Assembly: GCA_000442015.1 (NCBI GenBank)
Contig: KE561200.1
Span: forward strand, 62,001-96,851
Direction: 5' to 3'
Source of the DNA: Rozella allomycis CSF55
Taxonomy: Eukaryota
DNA: 34,851 nt
Position 1 is the first letter of the stretch; each line of letters starts with the position of its first letter. The notes under the pieces were generated by a model. The model made no database searches, had not been told where the DNA came from, and saw only the letters and a list, made by a program, of their open reading frames with translations. This document shows, piece after piece, positions 7,884 through 33,155 of the stretch. The position numbers and the translations under genes were made by a program.

Positions 7884-9051
7884 ATGACTGATTCTGTAAA
7901 TACCAATCATTATTGAAGATTAGCGTTCATTAGCCAGGAAAAATATCAAAAAAGGATTAAACTTTACAATTATGACTGTTGGTCATAGTGGATTGGGAAA
8001 AACAACCTTTGTTAACACATTGTTGGAGACTACAGTTATTCCTAAAAAGGAGATCCCAGACGGCTATCATTCATCTCTGCCTAAAGAAATTGACATTCAG
8101 ACATACACTTTAGGTAAATAGCATAAAATATAACCCATTAGATATCGATGAAGGTGGGAACAAGATATCCGTCTCAATTGTTGACACACCGGGATTTGGT
8201 GATTCTTTAAACAACACTGACAGGTACATTGCATCATTTATTTCTTTGAAAGCCCACAGAAACTAATGGAGTATTTGGAAACTCAGTTTGATGAATTTTT
8301 GGCCGAGGAAACACGCATCAAGAGGAATCCGAAATCTGAAGATAAAAGAGTTCACGTTATTCTTTATTTTATATCTCCATTTGGACATTCGTAAAATGAA
8401 ATGATGATATAGAGATAGATTGAAAGAAATTGATATTCAAACAATGAAACTTTTGTCCAAGAGAGCAAATATCATCCCTGTAATCGCAAAAGCTGACGGG
8501 CTCAATGCAACTGAATTGCAACATTATAAGAGAAGAGTAACTGATTAATCAGGTTATTACAGATCATGGAAGACATCAGAAAGTTTCAGATCCCAATTTA
8601 CGATTTTCCGTTTGATCCAGAAGAGGACGATGCTGAGTTTATCAAGTTGAGTTTAGAAATGAGGGTAAATTATAAGCATTAGTAATGATAGAATTGTTTA
8701 CCATTTGCATTGATAGGTGCTGATCATGAAATGGTAGAGAATGGTCGTCGCAAAAGAGGTAGAATGTACCCATGGGGTTTTGTCGATGGTAATTGCATGA
8801 TTATTTTTTATTAAAGTCGATAATCCAAAACATTCTGACTTTTCAAAGCTAAAGAAAGTATTACTCAAGTAATTAAAATACAACATCGATAAAGTACCAA
8901 TCTAAATGACTTGAAGGAAATAACGCAACTAATTTTGTATGAAAACTATAGAACAGAAAAGTTGAGCGAAGGAATGTAATATTTGTTAAACAAAATCAAT
9001 AGGGAAATGGAGGAAGGACAGCAAGTTCCCGAAGCTGAAGTGTCTGCCTAA
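7884..9051 (+). CDS. CDC11: Septin, Cdc11/Spn3-like; 9 introns of 26-29 nt (absent from the ORF track)
   Basis: Spliced translation: KKGLNFTIMTVGHSGLGKTTFVNTL, IVDTPGFGD, EETRIKRNPKSEDKRVHVILYFI, NIIPVIAKAD, GRMYPWG, HSDF, LYENYRTEKL. Subgroup assigned from the RIKRNP and FPFDPEEDD motifs. Confidence 0.9.
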
Positions 9052-9101
9052 ATGTTAATAAAAATGATTTCTTGAATAATATATTAAACAATGTCATGTA
9101 A

Positions 9102-11025
9102 ATGGTTTTAATGAATGTTGGGGACCCCTGCAATCTCTCGTATTCTATGCTTGAATGTAATCTTGACCCTCGTCTTCCAGTTCATGCCAAGACAAAGGAG
9201 AAAATAGTGATGGTGCCAGTACCACAAATTAAAATGGATGAATATTTTTTCGAATGGCTGTTTTCTACCGACGCAATACAATTATTGGAAGACAACAACA
9301 ATTTTGATACCCAAACAGACGAAATAGAAGCTATAGAAAATAATAATAAACTGGAAGATCATCCCCCGATGTCGCCTAGATTGAAGAGAACTACAGAGTT
9401 GTTGTCATCAGATGTGAAGAGACTGAGTATCCTAGGTAAGAAGAGATTATTTGAATGATAAAGAAGAAAATAGTTTGATAGGAGAAAAGTGCTCCTTTGA
9501 AACCGACAAGGACAAAACAAAAACGATAGACCGTTTCCATTTTCCGTTTGGAAAGCCCATCCCTGAATACGAAAAGAAGAATCGATTAAGAATTATTTTG
9601 GTATGCAATTGATATGCGATTAACAAAGCATGCTGCGAGAGAGAGATTTCCAGATCATGGATTGTCATGCNATTTCCAGACCATGGATTGTCATGCTCTG
9701 AGTTTGCCGCCATTACAAAAATCTGCAACTTGCCAATGTATTTAAATCAGTGTTTATTTAAGAAAATGGAGAGTAATGAAAATGCAAAAGTGAAGTATAT
9801 GCGATTTGCAAAGTAGAAAAATACAAAGATTGTGTTTTAGAGTATATAAAGATTTGTATATGAAATATCATGATGAAGTTTCATTAATATTTGGGATAAT
9901 AAAAAATGACAATAATAAATATTTTACGCGCGATGATTTGGTTCCCTTGATTTCTGAAATTTTGGAAAAACATGCTGGGTTAAAATTTCTGGAGCAATTG
10001 CCAATGTTTCAAGAGAGATATAGTAATTATGTATGATTTGATTGATTTCTGTGGAGACTGTGATTTGTAGAATATTTTTTACGATTAACAAATCATGGAA
10101 TGGAAAGATAACGTTGAATGAGTTTAAGAGCAGCAATTTTGTGCAGATATTGAAAAAGTTGGAACAATATGATGATATAAATGAAGTAAAATTAAAATAT
10201 GAAATTAATGAAAGTGTCGTGATTATTTTAGTTATAAACATTTTTATGTAATTTATTGTAAATTTTGGGAATTGGATTCTGATCATGATTTGAAGATTAA
10301 TAGAGAAGCGTTACTTAAATATGATAATTATGCGCTTTCATCGAAAATAGCAGAGAGAATTGTTGCAGGGTATGGACTAGGAAAGAGCAAGAATGAAGTA
10401 ATGGAATATTCAGATTTTGTTTGTAAAATGAAAATAAATAAAATAAAGGGTTTTTGTTGGCAGAAGAAGATAAAGAGAATCCAAGGAGTATTGAGTATTG
10501 GTTTCGATGCATGGATCTTGATGGCGATGGAATCATTTCTATTTATGAAATGGATTATTTCTTTAAAGAGCAACAAAGAAAGATGGAAATGATGCAAGTT
10601 GAGTCAATTAATTTTCTAGATTGCATTTGTCAAATGTAAATCTTTTTTTTCATTTTTATAGATTTGATTCAGTGGCACCTCAGATACCCCTGCAATTGAA
10701 ATTGAAAGATTTGAAGAAAAGCAAAATAGCGCCACTATTTTTTGATATGTTTTTTAATTTTAGTAAATTTATAGCACATGAGCAGCATGAAGCATCGTGG
10801 GATGTAATGGCAGATAAAGAAATGAGGTAAATCAAATCTATTTGTTTAATTAGTTTGTGGGATAAATTTGCTGAAGAAGAATATGACAAGATGACGTTAA
10901 ATGACGACAATGAAGTTTCTCAAGGGTCTTCTGGAAATCCTTCTGTGGATGATTTTGCAATCTATGAAGGGCTTTGCGTTAATCGAAACTTTAATGAAGA
11001 TGATAAAAACATGACAAATCTTTAA
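9102..11025 (+). CDS. Protein phosphatase 2A regulatory subunit B'' (PR72/PR130 family, EF-hand); about 8 introns; true start may be ATG at 9210
   Basis: [91 protein letters not shown]. Confidence 0.92.
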
Positions 11026-11125: not shown

Positions 11126-13020
11126 CTAAACAAGTTCTGCATCTTCCAAGTATCGATATTCAAATGTGAATTCACTCTTCCTCCTTTGACACCACGATCC
11201 TTCATAGTCAAAATAAATATAAGTTCCTTGCTCATATTCATCTGTAATCAATTTAGGCTCATCGTGTCGCTGGAACCACGTTAGATATTTCTTATGAAAC
11301 CTCCAACTTTGTCTCTTCAATTCTTTCGCAGCCAAATACCTCCTTTCATCCCCACCAATTACTTACTGTTGATATGTCCTCTGCTGATAATAGAATATAA
11401 AAAATAATGTATCATTTTCAAATTTCTCATAAAGAACCGGATTCTCAAAAATTGGTAGTGGCTGAGTAGGATAATATGGCGGGGTGTTTACAGGATTCTT
11501 TGGCGAATAATTCAAACTTCTATTCATTCAATAATCAAAATTATTACTTTTCAGAATCTACAACGTCTGGAATGTTTTGAAACGATGAATCTACCAGATT
11601 CTGCATCATCGAAAAATCATTCTTTGCTACAAATAATAAACAGTCAACTTTGTTACGTTTCATTCTATTTGATGTTGACATGTAATCAGTCAACAAAGAA
11701 AATGAAAGATTCAAATTCTCACCGTCAGCATCCGAGCCTCTACTCAAAATATTTACAGGTGTTTGCGCTCGCTTTAAATTGGCTTGAATATCATGAGACA
11801 TTAAATGGCTTTCTGTAAGTTTCGAACTATTCGAATCTGGAATCGATGTTGACTCTGAAATTGACGGAGATCCTTCATCTTTCTTTTCAACACGCGGTAC
11901 AATTCCTTTCACTCAATTGATTATTCATTACCCTTGATCTTTGTTGTTGGCGATGGGGTAACTAGTGATGGTGGAAGTTGCTTGTTCCACACTTTATTGG
12001 TTTCATTTGAATTCGACTCTGTTTTCGAACTGATCATGGCAGAATAAGGCACATTCGGTTTGGGTGGTGGCGGAGCAGGCACCGGCGTTGGGGTCAACGT
12101 CTGTTTTATAAGCACCGGAGGATTCGATTCTATTTATCAATATCAAATATTTTTACTCTTTCTTATAATTGGCTCTTTAGGTTTCAAACTACTGGAATTG
12201 TTCAAAGGAGTTTTGCTTGGTTCAACTTCTACAGGCTTCTTCTTGATTTCAGGCTCATCGTCATCCTCATTTAGTTCATCCTCGTCTTCCATATTTAGCT
12301 CTTCATACATTTCTTCATCTTCATCGAAATCAGGCTCTTCATTGTTTTCAAGGTAATATTCAACGCTGTCTTTAATACCAGAAACCTGCTCATTGGTCAA
12401 AATGTCATTCTCCAAGTTTCTCAAAACATGCTCCAACTTGGCTTGATGGAACTTATATCTTTCCACTTTAGCCTCCAACTCTTTCCTCTTTTCAAGTTCA
12501 CTCTTTTTCTGCTTTTTTAGTAACAATGCTTCTATTTCCGCCTCCTTGGCATCTATTTGCGTATTAAGCCGATCAACACACCCATTAATCCACGAACACA
12601 AATCCGACTTTTCTTTTTCCCTGGGATCTATTTTAACAGCTGCGTTCAGTCCTTCTTTCGAATACGCTTTGGTTTTCATTTCGCGCTCGCAAGCCTTATT
12701 TCCATGTTTAAATTACCTTACTTTGAATTTCTCCATCATAGTTTCAATTGTTCGCCTAGATTCCAGTAAACTAGTCTTGTCTTTAATCTCGGTTCCCGCA
12801 ATCCATGTTTTAATTTGATCTCTTAGTCGCTGCAGCTTTTTAATTTCTCGCTTTAAATCATTCTCAAACTTTTCTTTCTGATTTGATGTCGTAGCCGCAT
12901 AAAGTTTATCAAATATTTCTTCAAAAACCGCTATCCCTTCAGTAACTTTTTTTAACGTTTTATCTATTTCGCCTGTCTTATACACCATAAATTTATACTC
13001 TGGAGCTTTCTCGTTGTCAT
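11126..13020 (-). CDS. NOT3: CCR4-NOT complex subunit Not3/Not5 (CNOT3); about 7 introns
   Basis: [50 protein letters not shown], and NOT-box [23 protein letters not shown]...[13 protein letters not shown]. Confidence 0.95.
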
Positions 13021-13099: not shown

Positions 13100-13961
13100 T
13101 TACAAATACAATAACTGGACTTTGGGATATGATAACATTAATATTGACCTCCAAAGTAACCTAGATAAGAAACCTGCTGCAAGCACACCATATGCATTGA
13201 ATATATTCACATTTAAGAATGCTTTGATAGTAACCCTTGATTTAATTACCAGATAATGCTTCCGCATTAGATGTTAATACAAATACATTTATCAATGCAA
13301 AATAGTCAAGAGAGTTGTAATCCCAGATAACCATCAAGAGAACAATCAATTTAAAAAAGGAAGATATGATTAAAGATATGGAAATATAATTGTATCTATA
13401 TGGCAATATCATACGTTTTACTTGACAATAATAGTTTGAGACCATTTCATTGTTACAAGACACCAGACAGCGGCCAAAACACCCAAATGAAATACAAGAA
13501 CATCTAAAATTAGAATAACATATTTATATTACCGATTGTTGATATGACAAAAAGATAGATGTATTTAAAAATGAAGCTTGAGGTTTGAAAATCGACAATA
13601 AACCATTTAATATCTCTATTACAAAGCATTATAATGTACAAACATCAAATAGTATCAAAAGCGTCCCTATACGAAAAACAATGCTTTGAAATCCCTTGTC
13701 GACGTATTCCATTCTATTGAAAAGCAGATGCCTATAGACTTGAGATTTATGCAACACCATTTAAGTACTAAACATTACAATTACCATGTCTATGAATATT
13801 ATTATAAATTCCAACTCCACATATGGATCTGCAATAACCCTGCATTTTTCCTCATTGACAAAAATGCATAAACTTACACAAGGAGACAGCCTAATATTTC
13901 CTTTTGAATATTCTGTATATAAACTATTAACTGAATGACCGCATTGCACGCAAATGGGCAT
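13100..13961 (-). CDS. ARV1: Sterol homeostasis / GPI-related ER membrane protein Arv1; about 6 introns
   Basis: MPICVQCG...NIRLSPC/EKC..ADPYVE zinc-binding Arv1 homology domain, IDM/VLHKSQVYRHLLFN, LFDVYIKW, LLMVIWDY. Confidence 0.9.
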
Positions 13962-13996
13962 TTTTTAAATTTTGGTAAAGAAATTTCATAAAGAGT
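13962..13996. promoter_or_regulatory. 35-bp divergent intergenic region (ARV1/CWC22), putative bidirectional promoter
   Basis: ATGs at 13961(-) and 13997(+), with two AAATTT elements in between. Confidence 0.6.
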
Positions 13997-16355
13997 ATGA
14001 TGGCAGAAGAAACTGTTTCGGTGCCCGTGTTTGATCAAACAAGGTCAGGAGGAGCGTATATTCCACCTGCGAGACTTGCGCAAATGCAGCAAATAGTTAC
14101 TGACAAGAAAAGCGAGGCCTACCAGAGAATGGCATGGGAGGCACTTAAAAAGTAAAGGTAACACTAGTATAATATAGGTCTATAAATGGGTTAATTAACA
14201 AAGTTAATATTTCCAATATAAAGCATATTGTGCCCGAGTTGTTTAGTGAAAATCTCATAAGAGGAAGAGGACTGTTTGCGAGAAGTATGATGAAAGCCCA
14301 GTCTGCTTCTTTACCATTTACAAGAGTATATGCGGCTGTCGTGGCAGTTGTTAATACAAAATTACCGATGGTTGGTGAAGTGTTGCTGAAGAGATTAATA
14401 ATACAGTTTAGAAGGTCATACCGCAGAAATGACAAGGTAATGCTATATAATTTTTGTTAATAGGCTCAATGTTTGGCTGTGACAACGTTTCTTGCTCATT
14501 TAGTCAACCAAAGGGTAGGGCATGATATTATCGCATTGCAAATATTAACGCTGCTATTGGAAAAGCCAACCGATGATTCTGTAGAAATAGCTGTTGGTTT
14601 TATGAGAGAATGTGGTTTGTTTCTGCAGGAATCATCACCTGCAGCAACGAATACCGTTTATGAAAGATTCAGATCAATTTTGCATGAAGCGCAAATAGAC
14701 AAGAGAGTTCAATATATGATTGAAATTCTGTTTCAAGTCAGGAAAGAAAAGTTTAAAGTAAGCAATTTATGAAATTTCAGAAAGGAACATCCTATTGTGA
14801 TTGAAGAGCTTGACTTGGTAGAAGAAGAAGAACAAATAACGCATTTTCTTTCTATAGATGAGGAACTTGATGGACAAGATTCATTAAATATTTTCAAATT
14901 TGATTCTAGCTATCTTGAAAATGAAGAAAAGTATCAAAGAATAAAAGCTGAGATTCTTGGAGAAGATTCAGATGAGGAAGAGGGTTCATCTGATGAGGAA
15001 CAAGAAGAGACTGAAAATGCAAAGGTTGAGATACAGGACAGAACAAGTACTAATTTGGTGAATTTGAGAAAAACCATTTATTTGGTTGTAATGTCGTCTG
15101 TTGACTTTGAAGAATGTGTTCATAAGTTAATAAAGTTGAATATTGCAGAGGGACAAGAGGTATTTAATTTGTGAAATTTCGTAATTTAGATTGAGTTGTG
15201 CAAAATGTTAATTGAATGTAACAGCCAAGAGAGAACATATAATCGTTATTATGGATTGATTGGGGAACGTCTTTGCAAGTTGAATCAAATCTGGATGGAG
15301 CAATTTGATAAATCATTTAGAGAGACAGTAAATTTAGTAAATTTCAGAAATTAGTTTGAAACAATTCATAGATACGAAACCAGTAGAATAAGAAACACTG
15401 GCAGATTTTTTGGACATTTATTTTCAATGGATGCACTTCCGTGGTCAATATTTGAGATTATTCATTTAAATGAAGAAGAAACCACATCCGCTTCTCGTAT
15501 CTTTATAAAGGTATTGTTTCAAGACTTGTGTGAATCTCTTGGATTGAAAAAGCTTAAAGAGAGGCTTTCTGATCCGTAAGTTATAATTTAAAGATTTATT
15601 AAAGATTTATGCAAGAATTTTTCACTGGAATTTTTCCCAAAGAGAATCCAAGAAACACTCGTTTTTCTATCAATTATTTTACTTCTATTGGATTAGGTGG
15701 AATTACTGACGATATGCGTGAGTTTCTCAAGCAGAAAATTCAAGAGCAAGAAAGCAGCGATGAATCTGAAGAAGATTCTTCAGAATATGAAAGTTCCGAT
15801 CAAAGTGATTCTGAATGTGAACCGTCAAGTCCACGCAGAGATCATAATGGTAAGTTAGTTGAAGCAGAGTACAACTATCGCATGCGTTCACCAAGTCCTT
15901 CTCGCAGCCGAGGAAGGTCACCAAGTAGAAGCAGATCACCTGCTAGACGTCACCATGAAAGCAGATCTCGTCACCGTGAAACAGATAGATCTCCAGTCAG
16001 ACGTCATCGTGAGCATGAAAGAAGCAGATCTCGTCATCGACGCACTAGCAGATCCCCTGTAAAACGTCGTGATACAAGCAGATCCCCTGTTAGACGTCAC
16101 CGTGAAACAGATAGATCTCCAGTGAGACGTCACCATGAAAGAAGTAGATCTCGCCATCGTGAGACGAGTAGATCTCCAGTTAGACGTCACCGCGAAAGAA
16201 GCAGATCACCGGTGAGGCGCCGCCATGAAAGTCCATCAAGAGAAAGTAGCAGATCTCCAGCTAGAGAAAAAAGATCACGATCCATAAATCGTCGCTCAAG
16301 AAGCAGAACTCCAAAGCGTTACAATAAAAGAAGCAGATCTCGCTCTCGTCATTGA
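13997..16355 (+). CDS. CWC22: Pre-mRNA splicing factor Cwc22 (MIF4G + MI domains, RS-rich tail); 6 introns
   Basis: [92 protein letters not shown]. Confidence 0.96.
15925..16270 (+). repeat. Coding imperfect tandem repeats encoding [15 protein letters not shown] units in the CWC22 RS domain
   Basis: Recurring agatctccagt-agacgtcac-cgtgaaa units. Confidence 0.85.
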
Positions 16356-23054: not shown

Positions 23055-23096
23055 TATGTTACCTTTTTGGACTTTGTTTTCTATTTGTAAACAATA

Positions 23097-26000
23097 ATGC
23101 AAATGCAAGTTTTGCAGTCTACTAATATTCCCTGGAGCAATATTCTTTCATTTAACTTATTGAAACAACGAAACGATCCTATTTTTGATGAATTGATTGA
23201 CTCATTAATTGACAGCAATGCAACAAAGGATGATTTAAAGCGTTCTATTGATGAATGGGTTAACCTGTTTAATGTAAAGGGTTAAAGGATACAATATAGT
23301 TTATGAAGCAGGGTCTTATCCTTCGCACAGAGTATTTGGCCACGGCAGATGAAGAGATCACCCAACTTCAGGTATAAGTTTCCATAGAACTGGAAAGAAT
23401 GAAATTGATGCCCTAAAAATAAAATCAAGCCCTGACCAGATTTTTTTCGACAGAAATATCTCGGATTATGAAAGTCGACTGCAGGAATTGCAAAACGAGC
23501 TGACCGTATAACATAATATTGTACCTTTCCCATAGAATGCCCAAATTCAAAATTCAAAATATGAAGACCAAGTTATGGAACTGAAAGAAGAAAACAGAAG
23601 GTCCCAAGGTATGCAATGAAACTTCTACCATAACAAGATCTTTTGTGTGAAGAGTTGTCTAATGAGAATAAGACATTGGAGAGTGAAATTAAATCACTAG
23701 AAGACACTTTGCAGAAAGAAAGACTTGATTCTTTGAACCAATTACAAGTAAATGATTGATATTGCCAATATTATGAGTTTGAAACTAAAATTGAACGAAT
23801 ATGAACTCAAGTTGGATCAGTCAGAAAAGGAAATAAAGAATTATAAAAGCTCTCTTCAAAAAATAAAGGATCAGCTATCTTTAAAGAAGGAGCAAGATGA
23901 TGAATACAAAAAGATAATTAGAGACAAAAATTCAGAGGCATCTAGGTATTTGAAAGAAATCGAGGACACAGTACGCAAATACGACTCACTGAAACTGGAA
24001 AATGATAATAATATACTCTGTCTAAAGAAATTGAGGGACGATTATGAAAAGTAAGAAAGAAAATTACCTTACATCTTGAGTTTGAGAAACGAAAAAAGAG
24101 AACTTGAAATTGTCGTACAAGAAAATGACACATTGCTAAGATCATTAGAGAATGACAAGCAATCTTTAGAACGGAAATTAAATGAAGCATTGGCTAAACT
24201 GGAAGAGAGAAACAACTTGGATGAAGTTGTATTTGATGAAATAAAAGAGCAAATTGCGGAATGGACTGTAAAGATACTTTTGTATTTACCAAAGGATGTT
24301 CTAGAAACAAAAGAAAAGGAGATATGCCGATTGATTGATGAAAACGAGCGATTGAAAAATGATATGATTAAAAAGAATATAGAGTTAGAGGAATATGGAT
24401 TTAATCTACAAACAATCGTTGAAAAGGACGAAAAGATAAAGGAGCTTTCTGACGCACTTGATGATGCATATCAAGACTTTGAGGCCCTTGGAGGGACCAT
24501 GGTGAATATAGAATCACAAAGCAGGGAAAGAATATCTGAAAATGGAGAAATTAATGATTTGGCAAATAAATTGCGACATCAAATAAAATTAAACGAGGAT
24601 TTAGAAAGTCGTTGTGTACAATTGGAAACAGAAATAGTTCATTTTCGTTCAATGATTTACCGATACGAAAGTGGTAAATATTTATAGTTAGTTGAAATAG
24701 GTGAGTATGGATTGACTGAAGCAAACCATGAAATCTCCAAATTAAAGAAATCAATTCTAACGAAAGATAATGAAATAAATGAGCTTGTGCAAAATGTAAA
24801 TCATTTAGAACACGAAGTAAAACTTGATATGGAATTAAAGAGATCAACGACCTGGTCGAAGAGAATTTAGCGATAAAGGAAAAATACAATGTCAATGAAA
24901 ATGAATTAAGGAAAACAACTAGAGCATTAAGGGCTTTAGAGAGTGAAAAATTAAGGGCGGAAAACTATCAGTTGAGAAAAGAAATTGACGACTTGGAAGA
25001 AGAAAGGATCAAGCTGAAGAATCAAATCAGAGTCAAAGTTAAAGAAAAGGCTGAAGGTGCATTAAGCATTGGAATGAAAGTTACGGATATATTATATCTT
25101 GAAGAAGGAGTTCAACATGAACCCCAAGCGGAAGAAAATACGAAAAAGTTTGTTCAAAATGAACAGTTAAGGTTTTCAGACAAGAATATAATGACAGACA
25201 ATTTAACACAAATAAAAGATGATAAAAAAGTAACTAATTCATTCGTACAGTCCTCATTTGACAAATTTGAAAAAGCCATACAATCTGAATTGTCGACGTC
25301 CGAGCAAGAAATCCAAACGGTATTTTTTCAAAAGGGCCAGTCAATTCAAACGATTGAGCAAGGAGTCGGAGATTCTAAATATATCAAAGAGCTTGAAGAT
25401 CGATATGAGCAAATTAAAGAGAAATTAAGAAATGTTTTAAACAAGAGAATTCAAGAAGATGAAGAAAATAATTCTAGATTCATCGATTTGACTGACAAAG
25501 TAACCTTCAATTTAAAGTAAAAGAGTATGAAAATGAAATTAACCAATTGAAACAAGTGATAGAGAGTTATTCAAAAGGTGAACATCCCATAAATCAATTC
25601 TATAAAGCTTCCATGGAAACCCTGGAAGAGCAATTGAAATACAAGGAAAAGATAATTTTCAATTTAGAGAAACTATTGAAAGAGGCGCAAGNAGAGACAC
25701 TATTGAAAGAGGCGCAAGAATCGGTTTATGAAAAATTGGAAACTCGTAAATAAATATGCTTTCATAGAGTTAGAAAAAAATGAATTAAAGAATTACTATG
25801 ATACTTTAAAGGAGAAAAAAAATCTCCTTGTATCTCAAAGCCTGGTTGAGAAACCAGTTCAACTAGAACCTCAAAATAACTTGTAAACAAACAAAAGTTT
25901 CATAATAGCAACGACATTCGAATGCTAAAACAAGATTTTCATCAAACTGTAAAAATAAAAGTAAAGCAAAATGATCTTAATTAAAGGAATATGAAATCGA

Positions 26001-27568
26001 AACCCTTCAATTAACAATAAATACCCTGGAAAGAGAATTGAATTTAGAAAAACAGAAACATTCTTCATTAAATAAAGCCTTAGATCAATTGAAACATCAA
26101 ACAGACGAAAAAGATCTTGAAATTAAGGACTTGCAAAGAAAGGTAAGCACCTATAACGTTATGTAAAAGGTGGCCTTCTTGAAGCAAAAAGGAAAGAGTG
26201 AATTAGAGAAAGAAAAGAAGGATCTAGAAAGAATATCTTTAGAAAAGGAAAAGCTTCGTGTTGAAAATGAACAAAGAATATTGAAGAGATCAAATTCTTC
26301 ATTAACTGAAATCTCTAAATACAAGAGAGAAATGGAAAAGATGAAAGAGGAAATCAAAGAAAAAGAAAATTTGATCAATGAACTTTACCAAATAAAGGAA
26401 CAAAAAGATAAAATGGCCAATGATTTGGTAAAGAAGAGTGTTTTTGCCACAAATTGTTCAATTAAAATATCCAAATTACAAAATCAAATTTCTGATCTAA
26501 AAGAGGAAAATGCTAGAATAAAAGAAAGAGGTAATGTTCTATTGTGAATTTTCAGAGTTGATCTTAATGAAAAAGAGAGACCAGAAACAACAAGAGTAAA
26601 AACTTGGGAAGCCGAAAGAAAACTTCAAAGAAAATTAAAAACATGTCAAATTCAATTAGAAGAAACTGTATCAAAGTTAAGATCGAAAGAATCTGAAATC
26701 AATTCTCTAAAGGACTTGATTCAAAAACAAGCAACACCGTCAAATAAAAATGAAGTTGAAAAATTTAATCATTTACTAAAATCAATCGAATCTAAAAGTT
26801 TGGAAATCAAAAACTTAAAATCCCAATTGGATGCCCTGGAAAGCAAAGACTTTCACGACGAATTGAAAGCATCGAAAATCAAAGATTTAGAATCACGAAT
26901 AGAACATTTAATGGATATTTCCGAATCGTCGCGTGAAATTAAAGACTACTTGACAGAGATCGGCAATTTAACAAAAGAGGTTGTAGAATGGAAAAGTAAA
27001 TACGAAGCTGCCCAATTCGAGCAAACCAAAAACCAAAAAGAAATTGACCGCTTAAATCATAATATTAAAGATCTAGAAGGTCTTCTATTCACTAAAGAGA
27101 AGGCCAAGAAAATGTCTCTCGAATTGGAATCATTGAGAAAGGAAAATACAGAATTAAAAAATTGTCTTCTTGAGACTTCTAAATTTGAAAAGTAATGAGC
27201 GCTTTTCATAAATAATAAAGCCTTCAAGAAGAAAACCAAAAACTAATGTCTGAAATTTCTGTATTGAAATCTAAACTCCAGTCGTTTACAGGGTCTTCTA
27301 CAGTCGCACCCAAGAAGAAATGGGAATTCGAAGTAAGATTTTAATTAAATATTTAAACTAGATCGAGTCACTTCAATCGCAAGTTCAAAGTCTGTCAGAA
27401 AAATTAGAGAAACCCAAATCAGACGATTTTGAAAGTTTAAGACAAAAGGTTCAAAAATATGAAGACTCTAATGTTTTGTTGATCAACGAATTGAAAGAAA
27501 TCAGGGATAGTTATCAACTAATTAAGGCAGAGAATCTTAGACTCAAACAAGCCAAAAGTTTTGAATAA
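23097..27568 (+). CDS. CEP290: Centrosomal/ciliary transition-zone protein CEP290-like long coiled-coil; about 17 introns
   Basis: YESG/EYGLTEANHEISKLK...KDNEINELVQNVNHLE and LRAENYQLRKEIDDLEEERIKLKNQIR match the conserved CEP290 block as I recall it (YESGVYGL...RAENQILLKEIESLEEERLDLK). N-terminal NIPWSNIL and C-terminal WEAERKLQ also fit. Confidence 0.8.
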
Positions 27569-27656: not shown

Positions 27657-28821
27657 ATGCAAATTACGTTCGTCTTGGATAATGGACAGTTGAACACTAT
27701 AGACGTTGATAAATCCTTGAATGTAAGACTAAGAATTATTGCTTACAGATTTCAAGTTTAAAAGCACTTTTGGAGTCTGAAATGAAGATTCCACGCAGAG
27801 AAATCGTCTTAATTTACAACGGGAAAGAGATATCCAACAACGATCTTACCTTGGAACATGCCGGGATATCGAATTTCGACGTAATAACAATCCGTAGAAA
27901 GCAAAGTCAAATCCCTTCAGCACCTAACGTAACTGGAAGTAATCAAAATACGTTACAAAATATGTTACAAAACCCAGAACTAATGAGACAATTTCAGCAA
28001 ATGGTAAAACGTTTAATTCTGTATTTTAGATTTCAAACCAACAGATGCCAGGATTAGGAACCAATGATAGCATGAGCTTAGATTATCAAAAAAGGTTGGA
28101 AGAAAATATAAGAATGCAAAACGTTCAACAAAATATGGAATTGGCTATGGAATATTATCCGGAAATGTTTGGAAGTATTACCATGTTGTACGTAAATTGT
28201 CAAGTAAACGGAATTAACATCAAAGCTTTTGTTGATTCTGGGGCCCAAATGACAATTTGTAAGAAAAGTGTTTTACTTTTATTAGTGAACAAACAAACGG
28301 CTGAAAGATTGGGATTAATGGAGCTCCTAGACACACGATATCAAGGGAAAGCAGTCGGTGTTGGAACGGCCAATATTATAGGCAGGATTCACGCCGCAAC
28401 ATTGAAAATCGGAAATCAGCATTTGATGTGCTCGTTTACAGTAATGGAAGGCCAAGGTGTCGAATTTCTTTTCGGTTTAGATATGCTAAAAAGGCATCAA
28501 GTAAAAAAAGCATATTTCACCTGAAAGGCTAAAATTGATCTTGAAAAGAATTGTTTGAACATAAATGGTGAAGAAATCCATTTTCTTCCAGAGTCAGAAA
28601 TACCATTAAGTGGTTTAGCCAAGTCACCTTTACCATCACCTCAAGTGAAAGACCATCCAACCTCATCATCAAGTAAATCAACGTCCTTTGATGAAGACAC
28701 AATTCAAAATTTAATAAACTTGACTGGTGCAGGGAGAGATAATGTTATAGAAGCGCTGAAATTAGCTCAAGGTAATCCAGACCTTGCAGTTAGTTATCTC
28801 ATGGAACTTCATAATAAATAA
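27657..28821 (+). CDS. DDI1: DNA damage-inducible protein 1 (UBL - retroviral-like aspartic protease - UBA); 4 introns
   Basis: AMEYYPEMFGSITMLYVNCQVNG..KAFVDSGAQMTI, GVGTANIIGRIH, FLFGLDMLKRHQ, and C-terminal UBA AQGNPDLAVSYL. Confidence 0.96.
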
Positions 28822-28830: not shown

Positions 28831-29925
28831 TTATTTTAAAAATCTTTTCAGACATTCTAAATTCCCACAATCACGAGCAACATCCAAAGCCGTCTTCCCT
28901 TGATAATCCTTTTGTTCAAGAAAGTGACTGCTAAAATGTATATCCTTGAAAATTTGTTTGAATATTGTGTCGCATGAGCTAATTAGCGCTAGAAAATGAA
29001 GAACAGTGGACTTTGAAAAATCTTGGCTATTTAATATCCACTGCGATTCATCGTTGTATCTCTCTCTTCTTTTATCAATTATCAATTGAAGCGTAGCTGG
29101 CATTTTATTCTTGACTGCAAGCAATACAGCGTTACATCCATCAAATGCTCTAGCATCCATGTCAACGTTGAAAGTTAATAATTCTTTAACGAAAAAAGTA
29201 AATCCATTTTCCACTGCTAATAAAAATGGTGTCCTGCCCATCCTATCACACGATTCTAGCCACCTCTTGTCTTTCTCGCAACAAAGTTTGATGACACTCC
29301 AGTATCCATATTTAGCTGCTTGATAAAGTGGCGATACCTTGTGAGAAAATGAATTATTCAAGTAAACAGATCTCCATTTTTCACTAAAATCATCAGCATT
29401 CCCTTTGATAATGTCCCATTTTGATATAGCGGGAAATGTATCAATATTAATAAGAGCAATAGCAGAAACGGATAATTTTGCAAACAATAGTCTTCCAAGT
29501 TTTCTTTTAGTCAATCCATAGATAACAGGTATATTTTTTGACTTGCATTTTTCAATGATGCTGTATACCGAACAGTAAAAGTGATCTATCCTTGAAGACT
29601 TAAGAAGATACCAGCTTCAGTATTTTTAGACAACTGGATATTGGTAGCCATGATTACACCAAACACCCTTAGTTGCGATTTTTCAAGCTGCTTCTGAATT
29701 TCTTTCATACCCACGATAACATATCTTTCGTTGAGGTTAGGATAACTTACTTGTTTTGATCATTAAGAAGGTTACATTTATGCAAGGCTGTTTGGGATTG
29801 CCAGACCTCGTTTATTAGATCAAAGAGTTGGTTTTCAAAGGTTTCAGTTATGATTTGTGTGACATACCAAAAAAGTATAAAAATTAAAGTTACGGTTGAA
29901 TTACTCGACAATTTTGTTCTTTCAT
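28831..29925 (-). CDS. SECIS-binding protein 2 (SBP2)-like L7Ae RNA-binding domain fused to C-terminal ankyrin repeats; 3 introns of 26 nt
   Basis: Spliced: (MKEQNCRVIQP)YVTQIITETFENQLFDLINEVWQSQ...KYVIVGMKEIQKQL...VIMATN...SIIEKCKSKNIPVIYGLTKRKLGRLLFAKLSVSAIALINID, then ankyrin motifs SPLYQAAKYG, GRTPFLLAVENG, GKTALDVA. Introns at 29586-29611, 29725-29750 and (non-canonical) 29868-29893. Confidence 0.72.
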
Positions 29926-30090: not shown

Positions 30091-32050
30091 TTATATTGGA
30101 GTCGTTTGCTCTTGCAGCCACTCGACGCACTCTTTTTCAAGAAGTGGTGAAACCTTCTCGTAGACCTTCTTGTGATACGCATTAATCCAGGCGATTTCGT
30201 CTGTTGTCAATAAGCTTTTCGTAATCAACTTTTTATGAATGGGAACCTTTCATGATAGCTTTAATAAGCGACTTACAACAGTGACAGCCTCAAATCCTAG
30301 AAATGAGTCGCCCATAACTGTGTATTTTGGAGTTACTTTCTTGACGACCAAAACATTTTCAATTCTAATACCGAATTTTCCGTCTTCATAATATCCAGGT
30401 TCTATTTTAAAATAAATTGTATCTTTTTACCATTGGTTACAGTCATATTAGGCTTTAATGGAACATTGTTGTAACCAATTCTTGGTCCAATTCCTTGTGG
30501 GCCTTCATGGACATTCAAAAAGCTTCCAACTCCGTGCCCCGTCCCGTGTCTGTAATTCAAGCCAACTTTCCACAGTGCAGATCTTGCCAGGCAATCAATG
30601 CTGTAGCCAGTAGTGCCTTCTGGAAAAATTAAAGAATCAATTGCAATATGTCCTTTCAAAACTCTTGTGAAACATTCCTTCTCATAATCAGTTGGGTTTC
30701 CAAAATGCACTGTTCTTGTAACATCAGTAGTGCCGTCAAGAAATTGTGCCCCTGAATCACATAAATACATTTCATTGACAGATAAATTTCTAGCGGACTC
30801 CTTTTTGGCATGATAATGGATGACTGCACCATTGGGCCCAGAACCTGAAATTGTATCAAAACTAAGCCCCTTAAAGTGCTTAACCTTTTCTCTAATAGAT
30901 TCCAATTTATCAGATACAAATACTTCATCCATAATTTTTCCATTTAACATTTCTTTTTCCAACCAACAAAAGAATGTACACTAATATAAACCAAAAAATG
31001 GCAATACCAAAGCAGCAGCGTCCCTTATATGGCATTGACGAAATCCTTCAATCTCAACATCGTTTTTTATAGATTTTAGCAAAGTTAATGGAGAAGGAGA
31101 TACAACTTTAACCTTTTCTTGATCCACTTGTTTTACCAACGCTACACTACATGTCGGCCCAACAAGAAAACTATGATCCTTAAAGTTCTCCAAATCTTCA
31201 AAGATTTGATCATAATTTTTTAATTCCACACCCTTTAACAAACTCAAAGCCTCCTTTTCAACTTGATCGACTTGACAGTAAATGATACAATCACTTTTAG
31301 TGATCAAAGCATACGAAAAGAAAACTGGATTCATTGGAACATCACTACCTCTTAGATTAAACAACCCTATAACAAATAAACGTCAAACGTTACAGGCAAT
31401 TTCATCAAGACTGGAAATTAAGTAGCCTTCGCTACTATTTTTCTCCAATTCTTTTCTAACATTTTCTAGTTTTTCTTCAAACGATTGGCCTGCAAATTGC
31501 AATGGTAAATTGAAGATTTTCTTATACTCTGGAGTTGGTCTGTTCTCCCATACTTTATCAATTAAATTTTCGGTTATATAAACCATTTCTATATTCTTAT
31601 ATTCTTGTTTCCTTGTTGATTCTATATCAATAAAAGATATACACTACCAAATGTAACAAGACGGGGGTCCACTCCAACACGCACGGTTTTTCCTGGAAAC
31701 ATTTTAGTGAGCCATTCTTGCCAACTAGGTGTTTCAGCCAATCCTTGTTTCATCAATGTCCATTCATTTTGATTAAGTTCTTGCGAAGCTTGTAAGAAAT
31801 ATCTTCCATCCGTCCACAAGGCGGCCTTTTCTTGAGAAATAACAGCGAAACCAGCTGAGCCCGTGAAACCAGAAATAAATGCTCTTCTAGCATCCCACGG
31901 TGCAATATATTCACTCTTAAACGTTTAAAACAATGTGTTAAATACCTGATGTGCGTCTTCAGAAGGAACAAAATAAGCATGCACATTGTACATTGGTAGT
32001 TTCATTAGTTCCCTCAAGTTTTTCAGTGATTTTGAGCGAACGGAAGTCAT
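30091..32050 (-). CDS. Xaa-Pro aminopeptidase 1 (aminopeptidase P, M24 family; XPNPEP1/Fra1-like); 6 introns
   Basis: [83 protein letters not shown]. Confidence 0.95.
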
Positions 32051-32096
32051 TTAAGAAAATTCAAAATCTTAATTGATTGAAATGGTCACGAAAAGT

Positions 32097-33155
32097 TTAT
32101 TTTGTTTTAGCGATTTCAGTGCCCCCTTTAGCACCAAGCATTCTTTTAATGTCTCCATAGATTGCAAATTGTCCAGCTGTTAAACTTCCAACCTAATTAT
32201 TTTTAAGAGATTCAATATTTACCATTACAATACGTGGACCAAGACCAAGGAACAAACCTCTTGGTCCCAAATCTTTTGCAATTTTTATTAGTCTTGTCAT
32301 GATTCCTTCTGCAGATGATCCCTTTGTCTTGTTTATTTTTGAAAGGAGGGTGTCTGCTGGCTGTGACACAATCGCGGCACAAGTTCCAGCAATTAAACCG
32401 CTTCCCAAGTTTACTGAAGTAACCATTGAATTTGAGAGATTTTCTTTTGGTGTAGAAAGGCTTTGATAGATCTTTTCAGATACAACTTCGTAGACGGCAA
32501 ACTTTGTCATTGTGTAAGGAACCTGTTTGAGGACAATAGGTCTAATATCAGATTTAAATTTAATGATTACCCAAACCCTGAGTAAAATCCTCTGAGAACT
32601 CCTTCTTCTTTTAAGATTCTGCCAAACCCAGTCAAAAGGCCACTTGCGAAACCAGGTTGAGAAACGAGTCGAATTCTTGTAGCTTCTAATGGACACAATG
32701 CGACATCAGCAATAAATTCAGCCAATGCACTTCCAGCCAAGTAAATAGCAATTCTATTTTGTTGAGCAGTTTCCATGCCTAGTCCTTCCACCAACTTCTT
32801 TTTAAAAAACTCGTACCCTCCAAATTTTAAAGCACCTTGAAGAAAATAACCGGCAAAAGTTGGTCCTATTTAATGATTGGTGGGATGATTACCGAATCCT
32901 GTTGCGAGTGCGCCGATGCCTTCAGATTTTACAATTTGTTGAGCCGAGCGCAGCATGCCTTGATTGTAGATGGTTGGTTCTAATTGTATTCTAGTTTTGA
33001 CGACATCCACTGGCGTGAGAACACCTTGATTAGTGAATGATAAAATTGGTACCATGGGTAATAGCGCAGCATAGAGCACCAGCTACAGCGAATCGAGAAT
33101 ACAAGTCTATTCCGGTAGGATTTGGTCCATGTGATGGTGCAGATGAATCAGGCAT
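32097..33155 (-). CDS. MIR1: Mitochondrial phosphate carrier (SLC25A3/Mir1 family); 4 introns; start codon uncertain
   Basis: [80 protein letters not shown]. Confidence 0.93.

Follow-up and report, generated by a model that had tools for sequence, protein, structure and literature searches.

The 34,851-nt window, by which we mean the whole stretch of DNA analyzed, contains about 80 miniature introns in about 20 genes, and the sharp lower edge of their lengths at 26 nt was confirmed. The DNA is eukaryotic, uses the standard genetic code, and is densely filled with genes. Exons in the window matched named Rozella allomycis CSF55 proteins at 99% (P0121) and 86% (P0241); the remaining best matches of the window proteins were to chytrids and zygomycetes. 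Splice boundaries throughout were inferred from reading frame or homology, and the sample is one 35-kb window.

Gene finding returned 110 putative introns, from which 28 longer than 60 nt were removed because they bridged separate genes and 12 more were removed as spurious or unsupported; four introns found by homology were added. Among the rejected calls, a 20-nt intron with a GTT donor (1706-1725) was used by none of 24 myosin homologue alignments, and a 19-nt intron (9427-9445) was exchanged for the 28-nt choice of public model P0241. In the resulting curated set, 72 of 75 introns are 26-31 nt long (26, 20, 11, 9, 5, and 1 introns of 26, 27, 28, 29, 30, and 31 nt, respectively), the others measure 46, 49, and 54 nt, and none is shorter than 26 nt, just as the initial annotation had described. 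The most common lengths in the set are 26-27 nt, and the distribution breaks off sharply below 26 nt. The full histogram is partly circular because a length prior guided the choice in 35 of the 75 cases; the 40 introns placed without it are free of this circularity. The floor is "hard" only in the sense that 0 of 75, from one window, allows at most ∼4% of introns below 26 nt.

The floor could be an artefact of reconstruction, with shorter introns missed or re-read as 26-31 nt because GTA and the common length were favored. The use of the length prior, the removal by hand of the two short calls (19 and 20 nt), and the presence of in-frame AGs at 20-25 nt at seven junctions all point this way. 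Homology decided two of these seven, both toward the longer form (with 25 votes to 0 at 8391 and 13 to 5 at 2029, the latter with mean scores of 80.6 bits for the 26-nt form and 71.4 bits for the 20-nt form); the short form also fits the frame at 11340, 11906, 22279, 25746, and 33639. In addition, stop-free introns that are a multiple of 3 escape frame logic, and two were found only via homology or profile length (for 13851..13877 in ARV1, the sign was that 60 residues covered 51 Arv1 profile positions, a 9-residue excess). Against an artefact stands an ORF-rescue scan that used neither gene models nor a length prior. With a background of 4.27 events per length, GTA donors gave 5 events at 25 nt and 21, 20, 12, 13, 7, and 6 events at 26, 27, 28, 29, 30, and 31 nt. 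At 20-25 nt there was no excess for GTA donors (27 events versus 25.6 expected) or for all GT donors, and seven decoy dinucleotide pairs gave no peak of the 26-nt type. Introns below 26 nt were seen neither in the curated set nor as an excess over background in the scan.

Spliced alignment to homologues with a flat penalty placed 19 of 19 tiny introns of the septin, Xaa-Pro aminopeptidase, and myosin genes at 26-30 nt. Among the 21 junctions under 60 nt that these genes contain, 20 gave no majority call below 26 nt. The remaining one is the aminopeptidase linker, where a 14-nt form (GTT donor, 31644-31657) was top-voted without a majority (36/95). At a further 21 junctions the reading frame left no second solution under 40 nt; 19 of these introns measure 26-30 nt and the remaining two 46 and 54 nt. 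Like the scan and the alignments, this frame test used no prior on length. In the independent public models P0001 and P0241, introns of 26-29 nt stand at 11 shared junctions. We therefore consider an artefactual floor very unlikely. The introns of the three genes, and those of the PP2A regulatory subunit (PR72-type EF-hand) and mitochondrial carrier genes, are as follows.

280..305, minus: myosin, 26 nt; 10/24 homologue alignments, only frame solution, same in the window's own model P0001
1634..1712, minus: myosin, 79 nt by homology, boundaries unsure; 15/24 alignments, 182 nt in P0001
1797..1823, minus: myosin, 27 nt, divisible by 3 and free of in-frame stops; 23/24 alignments, read through as coding in P0001
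2029..2054, minus: myosin, 26 nt, in-frame AG at 20 skipped; 13/24 versus 5 for the 20-nt form, P0001
2297..2350, minus: myosin, 54 (or 57) nt; 10/24 alignments for 54 nt, 11 for 57 nt
2526..2552, minus: myosin, 27 nt; 24/24, 117.9 bits versus 110.1 (15 nt) and 107.7 (12 nt)
2703..2729, minus: myosin, 27 nt; 23/24 alignments
3546..3571, minus: myosin, 26 nt; 21/24 alignments
3635..3660, minus: myosin, 26 nt; 20/24 alignments
8114..8141, plus: septin, 28 nt; 14/25 alignments, 10 begin downstream, 1 chose 40 nt
8224..8252, plus: septin, 29 nt; 24/25 alignments
8391..8418, plus: septin, 28 nt, skips an in-frame AG at 22 and another AG at 24; 25/25, none for the 22-nt form
8537..8562, plus: septin, 26 nt; 25/25 alignments
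8665..8691, plus: septin, 27 nt; 24/25 alignments
8789..8816, plus: septin, 28 nt; 23/25 alignments
8869..8894, plus: septin, 26 nt; 23/25 alignments
9436..9463, plus: PP2A subunit, 28 nt; P0241 (a public Rozella model), gene finder preferred 19 or 22 nt
9813..9840, plus: PP2A subunit, 28 nt; P0241, shorter in-frame alternatives exist
10031..10056, plus: PP2A subunit, 26 nt, GGAG acceptor; sole solution under 40 nt, P0241
10186..10214, plus: PP2A subunit, 29 nt; sole solution under 40 nt, P0241
10423..10448, plus: PP2A subunit, 26 nt; P0241, alternatives exist
10636..10661, plus: PP2A subunit, 26 nt; P0241, alternatives exist
10827..10853, plus: PP2A subunit, 27 nt; sole solution under 40 nt
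30247..30276, minus: Xaa-Pro aminopeptidase, 30 nt; 94/95 homologue alignments
30402..30430, minus: Xaa-Pro aminopeptidase, 29 nt; 95/95 alignments
30981..31007, minus: Xaa-Pro aminopeptidase, 27 nt; 95/95 alignments
31367..31393, minus: Xaa-Pro aminopeptidase, 27 nt; 95/95 alignments
31622..31647, minus: Xaa-Pro aminopeptidase linker; 26 nt (GTA) 26/95, 23 nt (GTG) 27/95, 14 nt 36/95
31916..31945, minus: Xaa-Pro aminopeptidase, 30 nt; 83/95 alignments
32542..32570, minus: mitochondrial carrier, 29 nt; also in public model P0121
32866..32892, minus: mitochondrial carrier, 27 nt; sole solution under 40 nt

The acceptor is almost always the first AG to end 26 nt or more from the donor. This holds for 39 of the 40 introns placed without the prior and, in the whole set, for 74 of 75; with the threshold set at 24 nt instead, the rule is correct in 35 of the 40. 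The frame test showed eleven AGs at 20-25 nt to be skipped, and the 46-nt intron (19640..19685) passes over an AG at 25 and splices at its next one, at 46. The early-AG skipping that the initial annotation had reported was reproduced at 24817-24842 (9 open codons after the AG at 24 versus 225 with the AG at 26), at 26531-26557 (14 open codons after the AG at 25 versus 211), and in ARV1 at 13614-13639, where use of the AG at 24 leads to a stop at the third codon and the upstream exon's alignment to Pfam Arv1 extends just to the proposed donor. The name CEP290 given earlier to the gene that holds 24817-24842 and 26531-26557 found no supporting family match, and we describe it as a coiled-coil gene. 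The introns of this and the other genes are as follows.

6617..6642, minus: class I tRNA synthetase (W/Y family), 26 nt; length prior, 35-nt alternative exists
7044..7069, minus: class I tRNA synthetase, 26 nt, in-frame 14-nt alternative; Pfam exon coordinates 12-186, 189-291
11340..11366, minus: CNOT3, 27 nt, in-frame AG at 24 also possible
11520..11547, minus: CNOT3, 28 nt
11906..11931, minus: CNOT3, 26 nt, in-frame AG at 20 also possible
12130..12156, minus: CNOT3, 27 nt; sole solution under 40 nt
12695..12721, minus: CNOT3, 27 nt; Pfam Not3 coordinates 7-91 and 90-231 abut
13504..13532, minus: ARV1, 29 nt; placed manually
13614..13639, minus: ARV1, 26 nt, TAG at 24 skipped, GAG at 26 used; Pfam match end at donor, stop test
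13739..13768, minus: ARV1, 30 nt; sole canonical solution
13851..13877, minus: ARV1, 27 nt, stop-free multiple of 3, TGAG acceptor; profile length excess
14152..14177, plus: MIF4G/MA3 gene, 26 nt; sole solution under 40 nt
14437..14463, plus: MIF4G/MA3 gene, 27 nt; sole solution under 40 nt
14758..14784, plus: MIF4G/MA3 gene, 27 nt, AG at 23 (a frameshift) skipped
15160..15189, plus: MIF4G/MA3 gene, 30 nt
15328..15354, plus: MIF4G/MA3 gene, 27 nt, AG at 20 skipped; frame test
15576..15604, plus: MIF4G/MA3 gene, 29 nt; sole solution under 40 nt
18570..18596, minus: CCA-adding enzyme gene, 27 nt; sole solution under 40 nt
19051..19081, minus: CCA-adding enzyme gene, 31 nt; alternatives exist
19400..19426, minus: CCA-adding enzyme gene, 27 nt
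19640..19685, minus: CCA-adding enzyme gene, 46 nt, AG at 25 (leading to a stop) skipped; sole solution up to 60 nt
19904..19929, minus: CCA-adding enzyme gene, 26 nt, AG at 22 skipped; frame test
20378..20403, plus: unnamed gene, 26 nt; sole solution under 40 nt
20571..20596, plus: unnamed gene, 26 nt, AG at 22 skipped; frame test
20773..20801, plus: unnamed gene, 29 nt; sole solution under 40 nt
20940..20967, plus: unnamed gene, 28 nt
21914..21941, plus: RAD23, 28 nt
22123..22150, plus: RAD23, 28 nt; other donors would give 25 or 22 nt
22279..22306, plus: RAD23, 28 nt, in-frame AG at 25 also possible
23274..23299, plus: coiled-coil gene region, 26 nt; weak
23372..23397, plus: coiled-coil gene region, 26 nt; weak
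23506..23535, plus: coiled-coil gene, 30 nt; sole solution under 40 nt
23609..23637, plus: coiled-coil gene, 29 nt; sole solution under 40 nt
24051..24080, plus: coiled-coil gene, 30 nt, TGAG acceptor
24674..24700, plus: coiled-coil gene, 27 nt
24817..24842, plus: coiled-coil gene, 26 nt, AAAG at 24 skipped; sole solution under 40 nt
25500..25525, plus: coiled-coil gene, 26 nt, AAAG at 24 skipped; sole solution under 40 nt, 8 versus 75 open codons
25746..25773, plus: coiled-coil gene, 28 nt, AG at 24 skipped, in-frame AG at 22 also possible
25883..25908, plus: coiled-coil gene, 26 nt; sole solution under 40 nt
25961..25986, plus: coiled-coil gene, 26 nt
26143..26169, plus: coiled-coil gene, 27 nt
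26531..26557, plus: coiled-coil gene, 27 nt, CAG at 25 skipped; other solutions need GTG donors
27192..27220, plus: coiled-coil gene, 29 nt; sole solution up to 60 nt
27333..27361, plus: coiled-coil gene, 29 nt
28004..28029, plus: DDI1, 26 nt; sole solution under 40 nt
28501..28527, plus: DDI1, 27 nt; sole solution under 40 nt
29586..29611, minus: ankyrin gene, 26 nt, AG at 21 skipped; frame test
29725..29750, minus: ankyrin gene, 26 nt
33639..33687, minus: unnamed gene junction; 49 or 22 nt from donor 33687, 26 or 31 nt from donor 33696

The sole exception to the first-AG rule is the 54-nt myosin intron (2297..2350), in which an AG at 28 is unused. This intron contains an N between two near-identical 28-nt copies, and the exception is possibly an assembly fault; with one copy removed, one reading would give a 25-nt intron, which counts against the floor. 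At the myosin intron 1634..1712, there is an N at 1627, and the first AG from the GTAATC at 1705 lies at 72 nt.

There is no depletion of AGs at 20-25 nt (6 of 227 positions, similar to the frequency at 5-19 nt), and their contexts (ATAG in 5/18 and AAAG in 3/18) are the same as those of used acceptors, so that context does not explain the choice of AG. The initial annotation had proposed a ruler-like mechanism with reduced dependence on U2AF. The data support this in part: the choice of the first AG at or beyond 26 nt agrees with a ruler. For its downstream half the test of the rule is weak, with only 72 positions at 26 nt or more that could hold an earlier AG, ∼2.5 AGs expected there, and 1 seen.

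All 40 introns placed without the prior have a GTA donor. The donor consensus is GTA(A), with an A at intron position 4 in 79%. An A occurs at position 23 in 68% and at position -4 in 69% of 72 introns, the two positions being identical in a 26-nt intron. Among the longer introns (28-31 nt), 13/26 carry A at position 23 and 13/26 at -4, so that the conserved A fits a 5′ or a 3′ anchor equally well. Acceptors in the 72 introns are AAAG (25), ATAG (21), TTAG (11), and NGAG (6), with the consensus A-W-A-G; the earlier description of AAAG or GAG acceptors therefore stands for AAAG, whereas GAG is a minority.

We think it probable that the introns are spliceosomal and of the ordinary GT-AG (U2-type) class, and that in this Rozella allomycis-like nuclear genome they have shrunk to the smallest size the lineage's spliceosome accepts. 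The branch adenosine would be chosen mainly by its position, ∼20-23 nt from the 5′ splice site, with the A found at position 23 in ∼68% of introns as the candidate. Such a position may represent the least spacing at which a 5′ site bound by U1/U6 and a branch site bound by U2 fit into a single spliceosome. Splicing would then use the first AG to occur a few bases past the branch, and AGs that are 5′ of the branch or overlap it would be invisible, which would account for the 26-nt floor as well as for the bypassed early AGs. Most acceptors may be kept no more than 5 nt from this floor by deletion bias together with selection for compactness.

A less probable alternative dispenses with a ruler. 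A degenerate, sequence-defined branch site (for example A at -4 in a T/A-rich context) would be bound by U2, with the first AG after it used, and the 26-nt edge would mark where shrinkage ended, shorter alleles having been spliced poorly and purged, rather than a measured distance. The frequency of A at -4 and the equivalence of its 5′- and 3′-anchored readings are consistent with this alternative, as are YTRAY-like words in 20/72 introns and the retention of U2 snRNA and U2AF in other tiny-intron lineages (PMC13644364). However, the skipped AGs at 20-25 nt often share the A at -4 and the AAAG or ATAG context with used ones, CTAAC was found in 1/72 and CTRAY in 2/72 introns, and the onset is very sharp, from 5 to 21 events between 25 and 26 nt.

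The initial annotation was right that CTAAC motifs are few and that a polypyrimidine tract is lacking. Pyrimidine content in the 72 introns was 0.51 before the AG versus 0.52 in the 5′ half, and neither a CTAAC-type branch motif nor a pyrimidine tract was seen as a shared signal. The longest pyrimidine run is at most 4 in 54/72, and position -3 is C in only 5/72 and A or G in 34/72. These features would suit a tract-free, U2AF-free recognition of the 3′ splice site in which the U2AF subunits have been lost or repurposed and the AG is picked only at the second catalytic step. The intron data say nothing on the proteins, however, and the intron interior is 40% T, so that some loose U-rich stretch is always present. 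Moreover, U2AF1 and U2AF2 persist in myxozoans whose introns are just as bare (PMC13644364), and absence of a tract alone is therefore not proof of U2AF loss. We regard such U2AF-free recognition as very unlikely.

In myxobolids and Dicyema, GTa...AG is what remains of the splice signals, and as introns lengthen a weak run of A shifts away from the AG (PMC13644364). The Rozella introns offer a parallel, with minimal signals of GTA(A) at the donor and A-W-A-G at the acceptor. They are also comparable to the tiny introns of microsporidia, ciliates, and nucleomorphs, and the microsporidian comparison is more apt than it was when drawn from the letters alone, because the organism is Rozella. The searchable literature holds only passing mentions of short introns in Rozella. 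With the introns described here Rozella, a close relative of the microsporidia, joins the known tiny-intron lineages.

A sharply bounded class of tiny introns is visible in the window before any gene model is drawn. All GT(A)...AG pairs of 8–80 nt on both strands were scanned, independently of gene models and of any length prior, for excisions that link at least 30 open codons upstream with at least 30 downstream. The unspliced frame had to meet a stop inside the candidate intron or at most ~5 codons past it, and no stop was permitted in the junction codon. For GTA donors the background was 4.27 events per length, taken over the 67 lengths outside 26–31 nt. Lengths of 26–31 nt gave 79 events, an excess of ~53, with the peak at 26–29 nt. 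The GTA-donor scan of the window showed no excess at 20–25 nt (27 events versus 25.6 expected), and any excess hidden at these lengths was limited to 11.7 events (95% upper bound). None of seven decoy dinucleotide pairs gave a comparable length peak.

Table. GTA-donor events by excised length in the model-free scan
Length (nt): 20, 21, 22, 23, 24, 25, 26, 27, 28, 29, 30, 31, 32
Events: 6, 0, 7, 7, 2, 5, 21, 20, 12, 13, 7, 6, 3

The G+C content is 30–37% across the window. Long frames are already open with the standard genetic code; the ciliate code (table 6), which contributed noise only, was ruled out for the window on this ground. Exon-level Pfam scans of every stop-to-stop frame of at least 45 codons (273 frames) mapped ~20 densely packed eukaryotic genes. 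Family matches identified a MyTH4 myosin, a class I tRNA synthetase, a septin, a PR72-type PP2A subunit, CNOT3, ARV1, a MIF4G/MA3 protein, an F-box/LRR protein, a CCA-adding enzyme, an LSM protein and RAD23; DDI1, an ankyrin protein, a Xaa-Pro aminopeptidase, a mitochondrial carrier and a long coiled-coil protein were also mapped, and several further genes had no family match in these scans. The coiled-coil gene at 23752–27565 (+) had been labeled CEP290 in the initial annotation. It gave no significant family match even at an E-value of 1, leaving that label unsupported, and is treated here as an unnamed long coiled-coil protein. Successive frames matched successive parts of the same Pfam profiles, and the genes are therefore divided into short exons, with ~80 introns in ~20 genes, or ~4 per gene. 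An aminopeptidase exon was 99% identical to P0121, the existing R. allomycis CSF55 protein model for the carrier-aminopeptidase region, and a PP2A-subunit exon was 86% identical to P0241, the corresponding PP2A model. After Rozella, the best matches were to chytrids and zygomycetes, at 60–68% in one search and 49% in another. These matches assign the window to R. allomycis or a strain nearly identical to it, and they ruled out an origin in dicyemids or myxozoans, which had been considered first. Several other features of the window were recorded.

13961–13991: head-to-head packing and hardly any spacer, with the ARV1 (−) start ~30 nt from the MIF4G/MA3 gene (+)
13979–16352 (+): MIF4G+MA3 protein, a possible splicing-related gene; CWC22 and NOM1-type proteins share this combination of domains
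21425–21754 (−): LSM-domain protein, a possible splicing-related gene
21599–21754: LSM gene (−) and RAD23 (+), whose open frames overlap at the 5′ ends
22982–23054 (+): tRNA-Thr(AGT), between protein genes
29948–30021 (−): tRNA-Val(AAC), between protein genes

Spliced alignment of homologous proteins placed introns in the same narrow range. A local protein-to-DNA aligner, in which any GT...AG of 8–200 nt carried a single fixed cost, placed 19 tiny introns in the aminopeptidase, septin and myosin genes, every one of 26–30 nt. With 95 homologues of the Xaa-Pro aminopeptidase the introns were 27, 27, 29, 30 and 30 nt long (95, 95, 95, 94 and 83 of 95 alignments, respectively); at a junction in a variable linker the votes were divided among 14, 23 and 26 nt (36, 27 and 26 of 95). 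The septin was aligned with 25 near-full-length homologues. Its first intron was 28 nt in 14 of these, with 10 alignments beginning downstream and one taking 40 nt, and the remaining introns were 29, 28, 26, 27, 28 and 26 nt (24, 25, 25, 24, 23 and 23 of 25). An in-frame AG at 22 nt within the septin intron at 8391–8418 received none of the 25 votes. For the myosin (24 homologues), the first four introns were 26, 26, 27 and 27 nt (20, 21, 23 and 24 of 24), another was 26 nt in 13 alignments versus 5 for an in-frame 20-nt form, and further introns of 27 and 26 nt were placed by 23 and 10 of 24. Two longer myosin introns were also found: for one, 10 of 24 alignments gave 54 nt and 11 gave 57 nt, and for the other, 15 gave ~79 nt. 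A separate comparison of junction variants by blastp agreed with the spliced alignments. The sole match to the PP2A subunit in the final word-index search was the Rozella model itself.

Every intron boundary in the curated set was assigned from reading frame and homology within this single window; one RNA run compared with the window yielded chance matches of 18–26 nt and no spliced junctions. A naive gene finder that permitted long introns chained genes through noise and was discarded. A second version, with a flat prior to 70 nt, was also rejected, as it often took "introns" of 12–22 nt despite the presence of a 26–31-nt GTA solution; wherever homology could check these picks, the longer forms were correct. 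Nonsense gene-finder calls around 22928–23122 are explained by the tRNA-Thr(AGT) gene there. Gene finding with a length bonus taken empirically from the model-free scan returned 110 "introns." From the 110 we removed 28 of >60 nt that bridged genes and 12 more that were spurious or unsupported. Of these 12, three lay antisense to the 5′ end of the myosin, three followed the 633-codon frame, two fell in the neck of the myosin, which is poorly conserved, and one was at the carrier 3′ end; the others were a 38-nt case with a GTT donor and two short candidates. The two short candidates were a 20-nt intron with a GTT donor at 1706–1725, used by none of the 24 homologue alignments, and a 19-nt intron at 9427–9445, for which 28- and 31-nt alternatives were feasible. 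The 28-nt choice of P0241 at 9436–9463 was substituted for the latter, and four homology-found introns were added.

The resulting set contains 75 introns, of which 19 were placed by homology, 21 have no other frame-keeping GT...AG solution of <40 nt, and 35 were placed with the length prior. Their lengths are 26 nt (26 introns), 27 nt (20), 28 nt (11), 29 nt (9), 30 nt (5) and 31 nt (1), plus single introns of 46, 49 and 54 nt, with a median of 27 nt. The claim of the initial annotation that nearly all introns measure 26–31 nt, with an edge at 26 nt, is thus borne out by 72 of 75 curated introns in the window, by the scan peak, and by all 19 homology-placed introns (26–30 nt). Four hand-derived ARV1 introns outside this set, of 27, 30, 26 and 29 nt, fall in the same range. 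Stop-free introns whose length is a multiple of three are invisible to the frame, and frame logic therefore undercounts this class; those at 1797–1823 and 13851–13877 were seen only by homology or by excess profile length.

Acceptor choice was analyzed in the 40 introns placed without the length prior, by homology or by frame alone. In these introns AG dinucleotides end at positions 5–25 with a frequency of 2.6–4.1% per position, and no depletion of AG was seen near the edge (6 in 227 positions at 20–25 nt). A rule that takes as acceptor the first AG ending at or beyond position X performed best with X = 26.

Table. Introns for which the first AG ending at or beyond position X is the acceptor
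X = 24: 35 of 40 placed without the prior; 66 of 75 overall
X = 25: 38 of 40; 71 of 75
X = 26: 39 of 40; 74 of 75

AGs that end before position 26 are bypassed where the frame permits a test. Eleven AGs at 20–25 nt are out of frame or meet an immediate stop when used. Bypassing was reproduced in all three introns cited for it in the initial annotation: AAAG at 24 nt in the intron at 24817–24842 leaves 9 open codons versus 225; CAG at 25 nt in 26531–26557 leaves 14 versus 211; and TAG at 24 nt in the ARV1 intron at 13614–13639 leads to a stop at the third codon, and the upstream exon's match to the Arv1 profile runs exactly to the proposed donor. Similarly, AAAG at 24 nt in 25500–25525 leaves 8 open codons versus 75. 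In the intron at 19640–19685, where ATAG at 25 nt leads to a stop, the acceptor is the AG that follows it, at 46 nt. Skipped AGs at 20–25 nt have the same contexts as used acceptors (ATAG in 5 of 18, AAAG in 3 of 18), and position rather than context therefore decides AG use. Between 26 nt and the acceptor, the introns placed without the prior contain 1 AG in 72 positions versus ~2.5 expected, a comparison of low power. Frame alone does not decide at junctions 11340, 11906, 22279, 25746 and 33639, each with an in-frame AG at 20–25 nt; the last of these, 33639–33696, has several alternative intron readings (49 or 22 nt from a donor at 33687, 26 or 31 nt from a donor at 33696).

The 54/57-nt myosin intron as assembled violates the first-AG rule, with an AG at 28 nt. 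An N within it has a 28-nt copy on either side, and a single base distinguishes the two copies. This duplication, at 2283–2339 (−) with the N at 2310, covers the 3′ part of the intron and the beginning of the next exon, and probably represents two alleles put in tandem by the assembler. Deletion of one copy converts the junction to a 28-nt intron, or to a 25-nt intron by one reading. The other long myosin intron, close to the N at 1627, is free of AG for 71 nt after GTAATC, which is consistent with the rule. Further Ns are present at 1627, 9671 and 25692, and the first two of these are sites where public models and alignments require odd long introns. At 13739–13795 (−) in ARV1, the matches to the Arv1 profile that flank a repeated ATGGT have four positions in common; the junction best by homology is a 27-nt GT...TG excision, and the sole canonical GT...AG excision is 30 nt (13739–13768).

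The existing Rozella protein models are themselves predictions and were not treated as independent truth. The myosin model, P0001, has introns of 27, 27, 54, 26, ~28, 29 and 26 nt and two long gaps, of 182 and 122 nt, in the neck region. It retains the 27-nt stop-free intron at 1797–1823 (−) as nine extra motor-domain residues, which 23 of 24 homologue alignments remove. P0241 has introns of 28, 28, 26, 29, 26 and 26 nt plus a 162-nt gap across an N. P0121 ("mitochondrial carrier," 30094–33155 (−)) is a chimera in which the carrier is linked to the neighboring Xaa-Pro aminopeptidase by a 307-nt "intron," and its other "introns," of 43–123 nt, omit sequence taken as exon in the homologue alignments. 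Predictors that bar introns of 26–30 nt yield wrong proteins, as in P0121 and P0001, and such errors carry over to work on early fungi that relies on phylogenomics or gene content.

Splice signals are minimal. All 75 curated introns have GT...AG ends, the only ends allowed in the searches. The donor is GTA in all 72 introns of 26–31 nt, and the 40 introns placed without the prior, for which any GT was permitted, are all GTA...AG. Position 4 is A in 79% of the 72, with no conservation beyond it; the commonest donor hexamer, GTAAAT, occurs in only 12. Information past GTA(A) is near zero up to position 23 or −4, and the interior composition is 38% A, 40% T, 12% G and 10% C. At the acceptor, position −4 is A in 69%, and position −3 is T in 33 introns, A in 28, G in 6 and C in 5. 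Many acceptors had been described as AAAG or GAG: AAAG is indeed frequent (25 of 72), the GAG class is smaller (NGAG, 6 of 72), and ATAG (21) and TTAG (11) are also common. The polypyrimidine tract is absent, as had been noted, with a pyrimidine fraction of 0.51 at −14 to −5 versus 0.52 at positions 6–13; the longest pyrimidine run in the 15 nt preceding the AG is at most 4 in 54 of 72 introns. Reduced dependence on U2AF had been proposed for these tract-free acceptors, and a putative loss of U2AF is possible.

The introns are probably spliced by a standard U2-type spliceosome operating at minimal geometry. The branch adenosine would lie ~20–23 nt from the donor and be selected largely by position, and the acceptor would be the first AG a few bases past it. 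AGs ahead of or on top of the branch would be invisible, which would produce both the floor and the skipped AGs. According to the main rival explanation, the branch site is defined by sequence, in degenerate form, and 26 nt is an evolutionary stopping point. CTAAC is scarce, as the initial annotation had stated (1 of 72 introns). CTRAY occurs in 2 of 72 and YTRAY in 20 of 72, and no recognizable CTRAY or TACTAAC branch motif emerged from the 72 introns. Weak branch motifs are normal among intron-rich species, and their weakness here is therefore compatible with U2-type membership. The interior carries a single signal, an A that occupies position 23 in 68% of introns and corresponds to −4 when the intron is 26 nt long. 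Among introns of 28–31 nt, 13 of 26 have an A at position 23 and as many have one at −4, which favors neither a donor nor an acceptor anchor. The introns do not resemble U12-type introns, which have a highly conserved ATATCC/GTATCC donor and a TCCTTAAC branch site: CTAAC-like words are rare, and the 12 top donor hexamers, present in 54 of the 72 introns, all read GTAA.. or GTATTT; one curated intron, at 29586–29611, has a donor that begins GTATCT.

Within this window the length class, its 26-nt edge, the minimal signals and the position-dependent use of AGs are real and well supported. Selection of the acceptor by distance from the donor, the ruler-like mechanism initially suggested, accords with this use of AGs and with the 39 of 40 introns that obey the first-AG rule, and is a reasonable but unproven reading. 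Acceptors lie mostly within 5 nt of the floor, far above the 3–4% chance frequency of AG, which points to steady pressure to shrink. In yeast and mammals, scanning from the branch point selects the first AG past it, and AGs that lie ahead of the branch point, on it or too near to it are passed over. A sequence motif defines the branch site in those systems, and the distances exceed those seen here, whereas in the window the branch has no sequence motif and the usable zone begins at a fixed distance from the donor.

Narrow lineage-specific length classes, a hard lower edge and minimal signals are also features of ciliate and nucleomorph tiny introns, which measure 18–21 nt in the Bigelowiella nucleomorph and are likewise tiny in Paramecium. 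These lineages are unrelated to Rozella, their lower edges are at 15–20 nt versus 26 nt in the window, and many ciliates use other genetic codes, unlike the window with its standard code. Stentor introns of 15–16 nt are cited in PMC13644364. Ultra-short introns with GTa...AG signals occur in the myxobolids Henneguya, Thelohanellus and Myxobolus and in Dicyema, where the longer the intron, the farther a weak A patch lies from the AG, and where both U2 snRNA and U2AF are kept (PMC13644364). Median intron length in dicyemids and myxobolids is 22–27 bp (PMC13644364; PMC6543705); the latter paper gives a median of 27 bp for Dicyema sp., and a mean of 38 bp for D. japonicum is given in PMC6736024. 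The window resembles these genomes in its narrow class of introns under ~30 nt, signals reduced to GTA...AG, the absence of a tract, a weak 3′ A patch, many introns per gene, and a compact parasite genome. Dicyemids and myxobolids differ in being animals, with separate shrinkage, and myxobolid introns extend down to 20–22 bp, an edge below 26 nt; A at −4 of the acceptor and the sharp onset at 26 nt distinguish the window.

Rozella shares with its close relatives the microsporidia very short introns with GT-AG ends; Encephalitozoon cuniculi introns are 22–76 nt with strict motifs (PMC3629993). E. cuniculi has only ~37 introns with strict 5′ and branch motifs, whereas the window has ~4 introns per gene with degenerate signals. 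The microsporidian pattern, in which introns are few and carry strict extended motifs at the 5′ end and branch site, was not found in the window. Whelan et al. (PMC6349667) describe two Rozella S23 introns of ~30 nt without microsporidian motifs. Two other papers give a Rozella intron density of 2.5 per kb (PMC8476143) and median intron lengths of "29 to 197 bp" across genomes that include R. allomycis (PMC8042348). The word "intron" never occurs in the text of PMC5701793, and the list of exceptions in PMC13644364 comprises ciliates, microsporidia and dicyemids, with Rozella absent. Beyond these passing remarks on Rozella, no analysis of its intron length floor, acceptor choice or splice signals was found among the papers listed by full-text searches; the genome paper of James et al. 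(2013) may hold more.

Rozella is therefore an addition to the known tiny-intron lineages, a phenomenon with precedents in several lineages. Such lineages are natural experiments on the minimum sequence that a spliceosome requires, and Rozella, which adjoins the microsporidia and has a clean 26-nt edge, is a good system in which to study it. As an intron-rich, fungus-related case alongside the intron-poor microsporidia, it lets the timing and mode of intron miniaturization on that branch be asked. On a further reading, which we consider unlikely, the Rozella spliceosome has a true 5′-anchored ruler: the branch adenosine is set by donor distance rather than sequence, the acceptor is the first AG that ends at 26 nt or later, no tract is needed, and this mode already existed in the last ancestor that rozellids share with microsporidia. 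Microsporidian miniature introns would in that case not have been invented separately but would be remnants of an ancestor rich in tiny introns.
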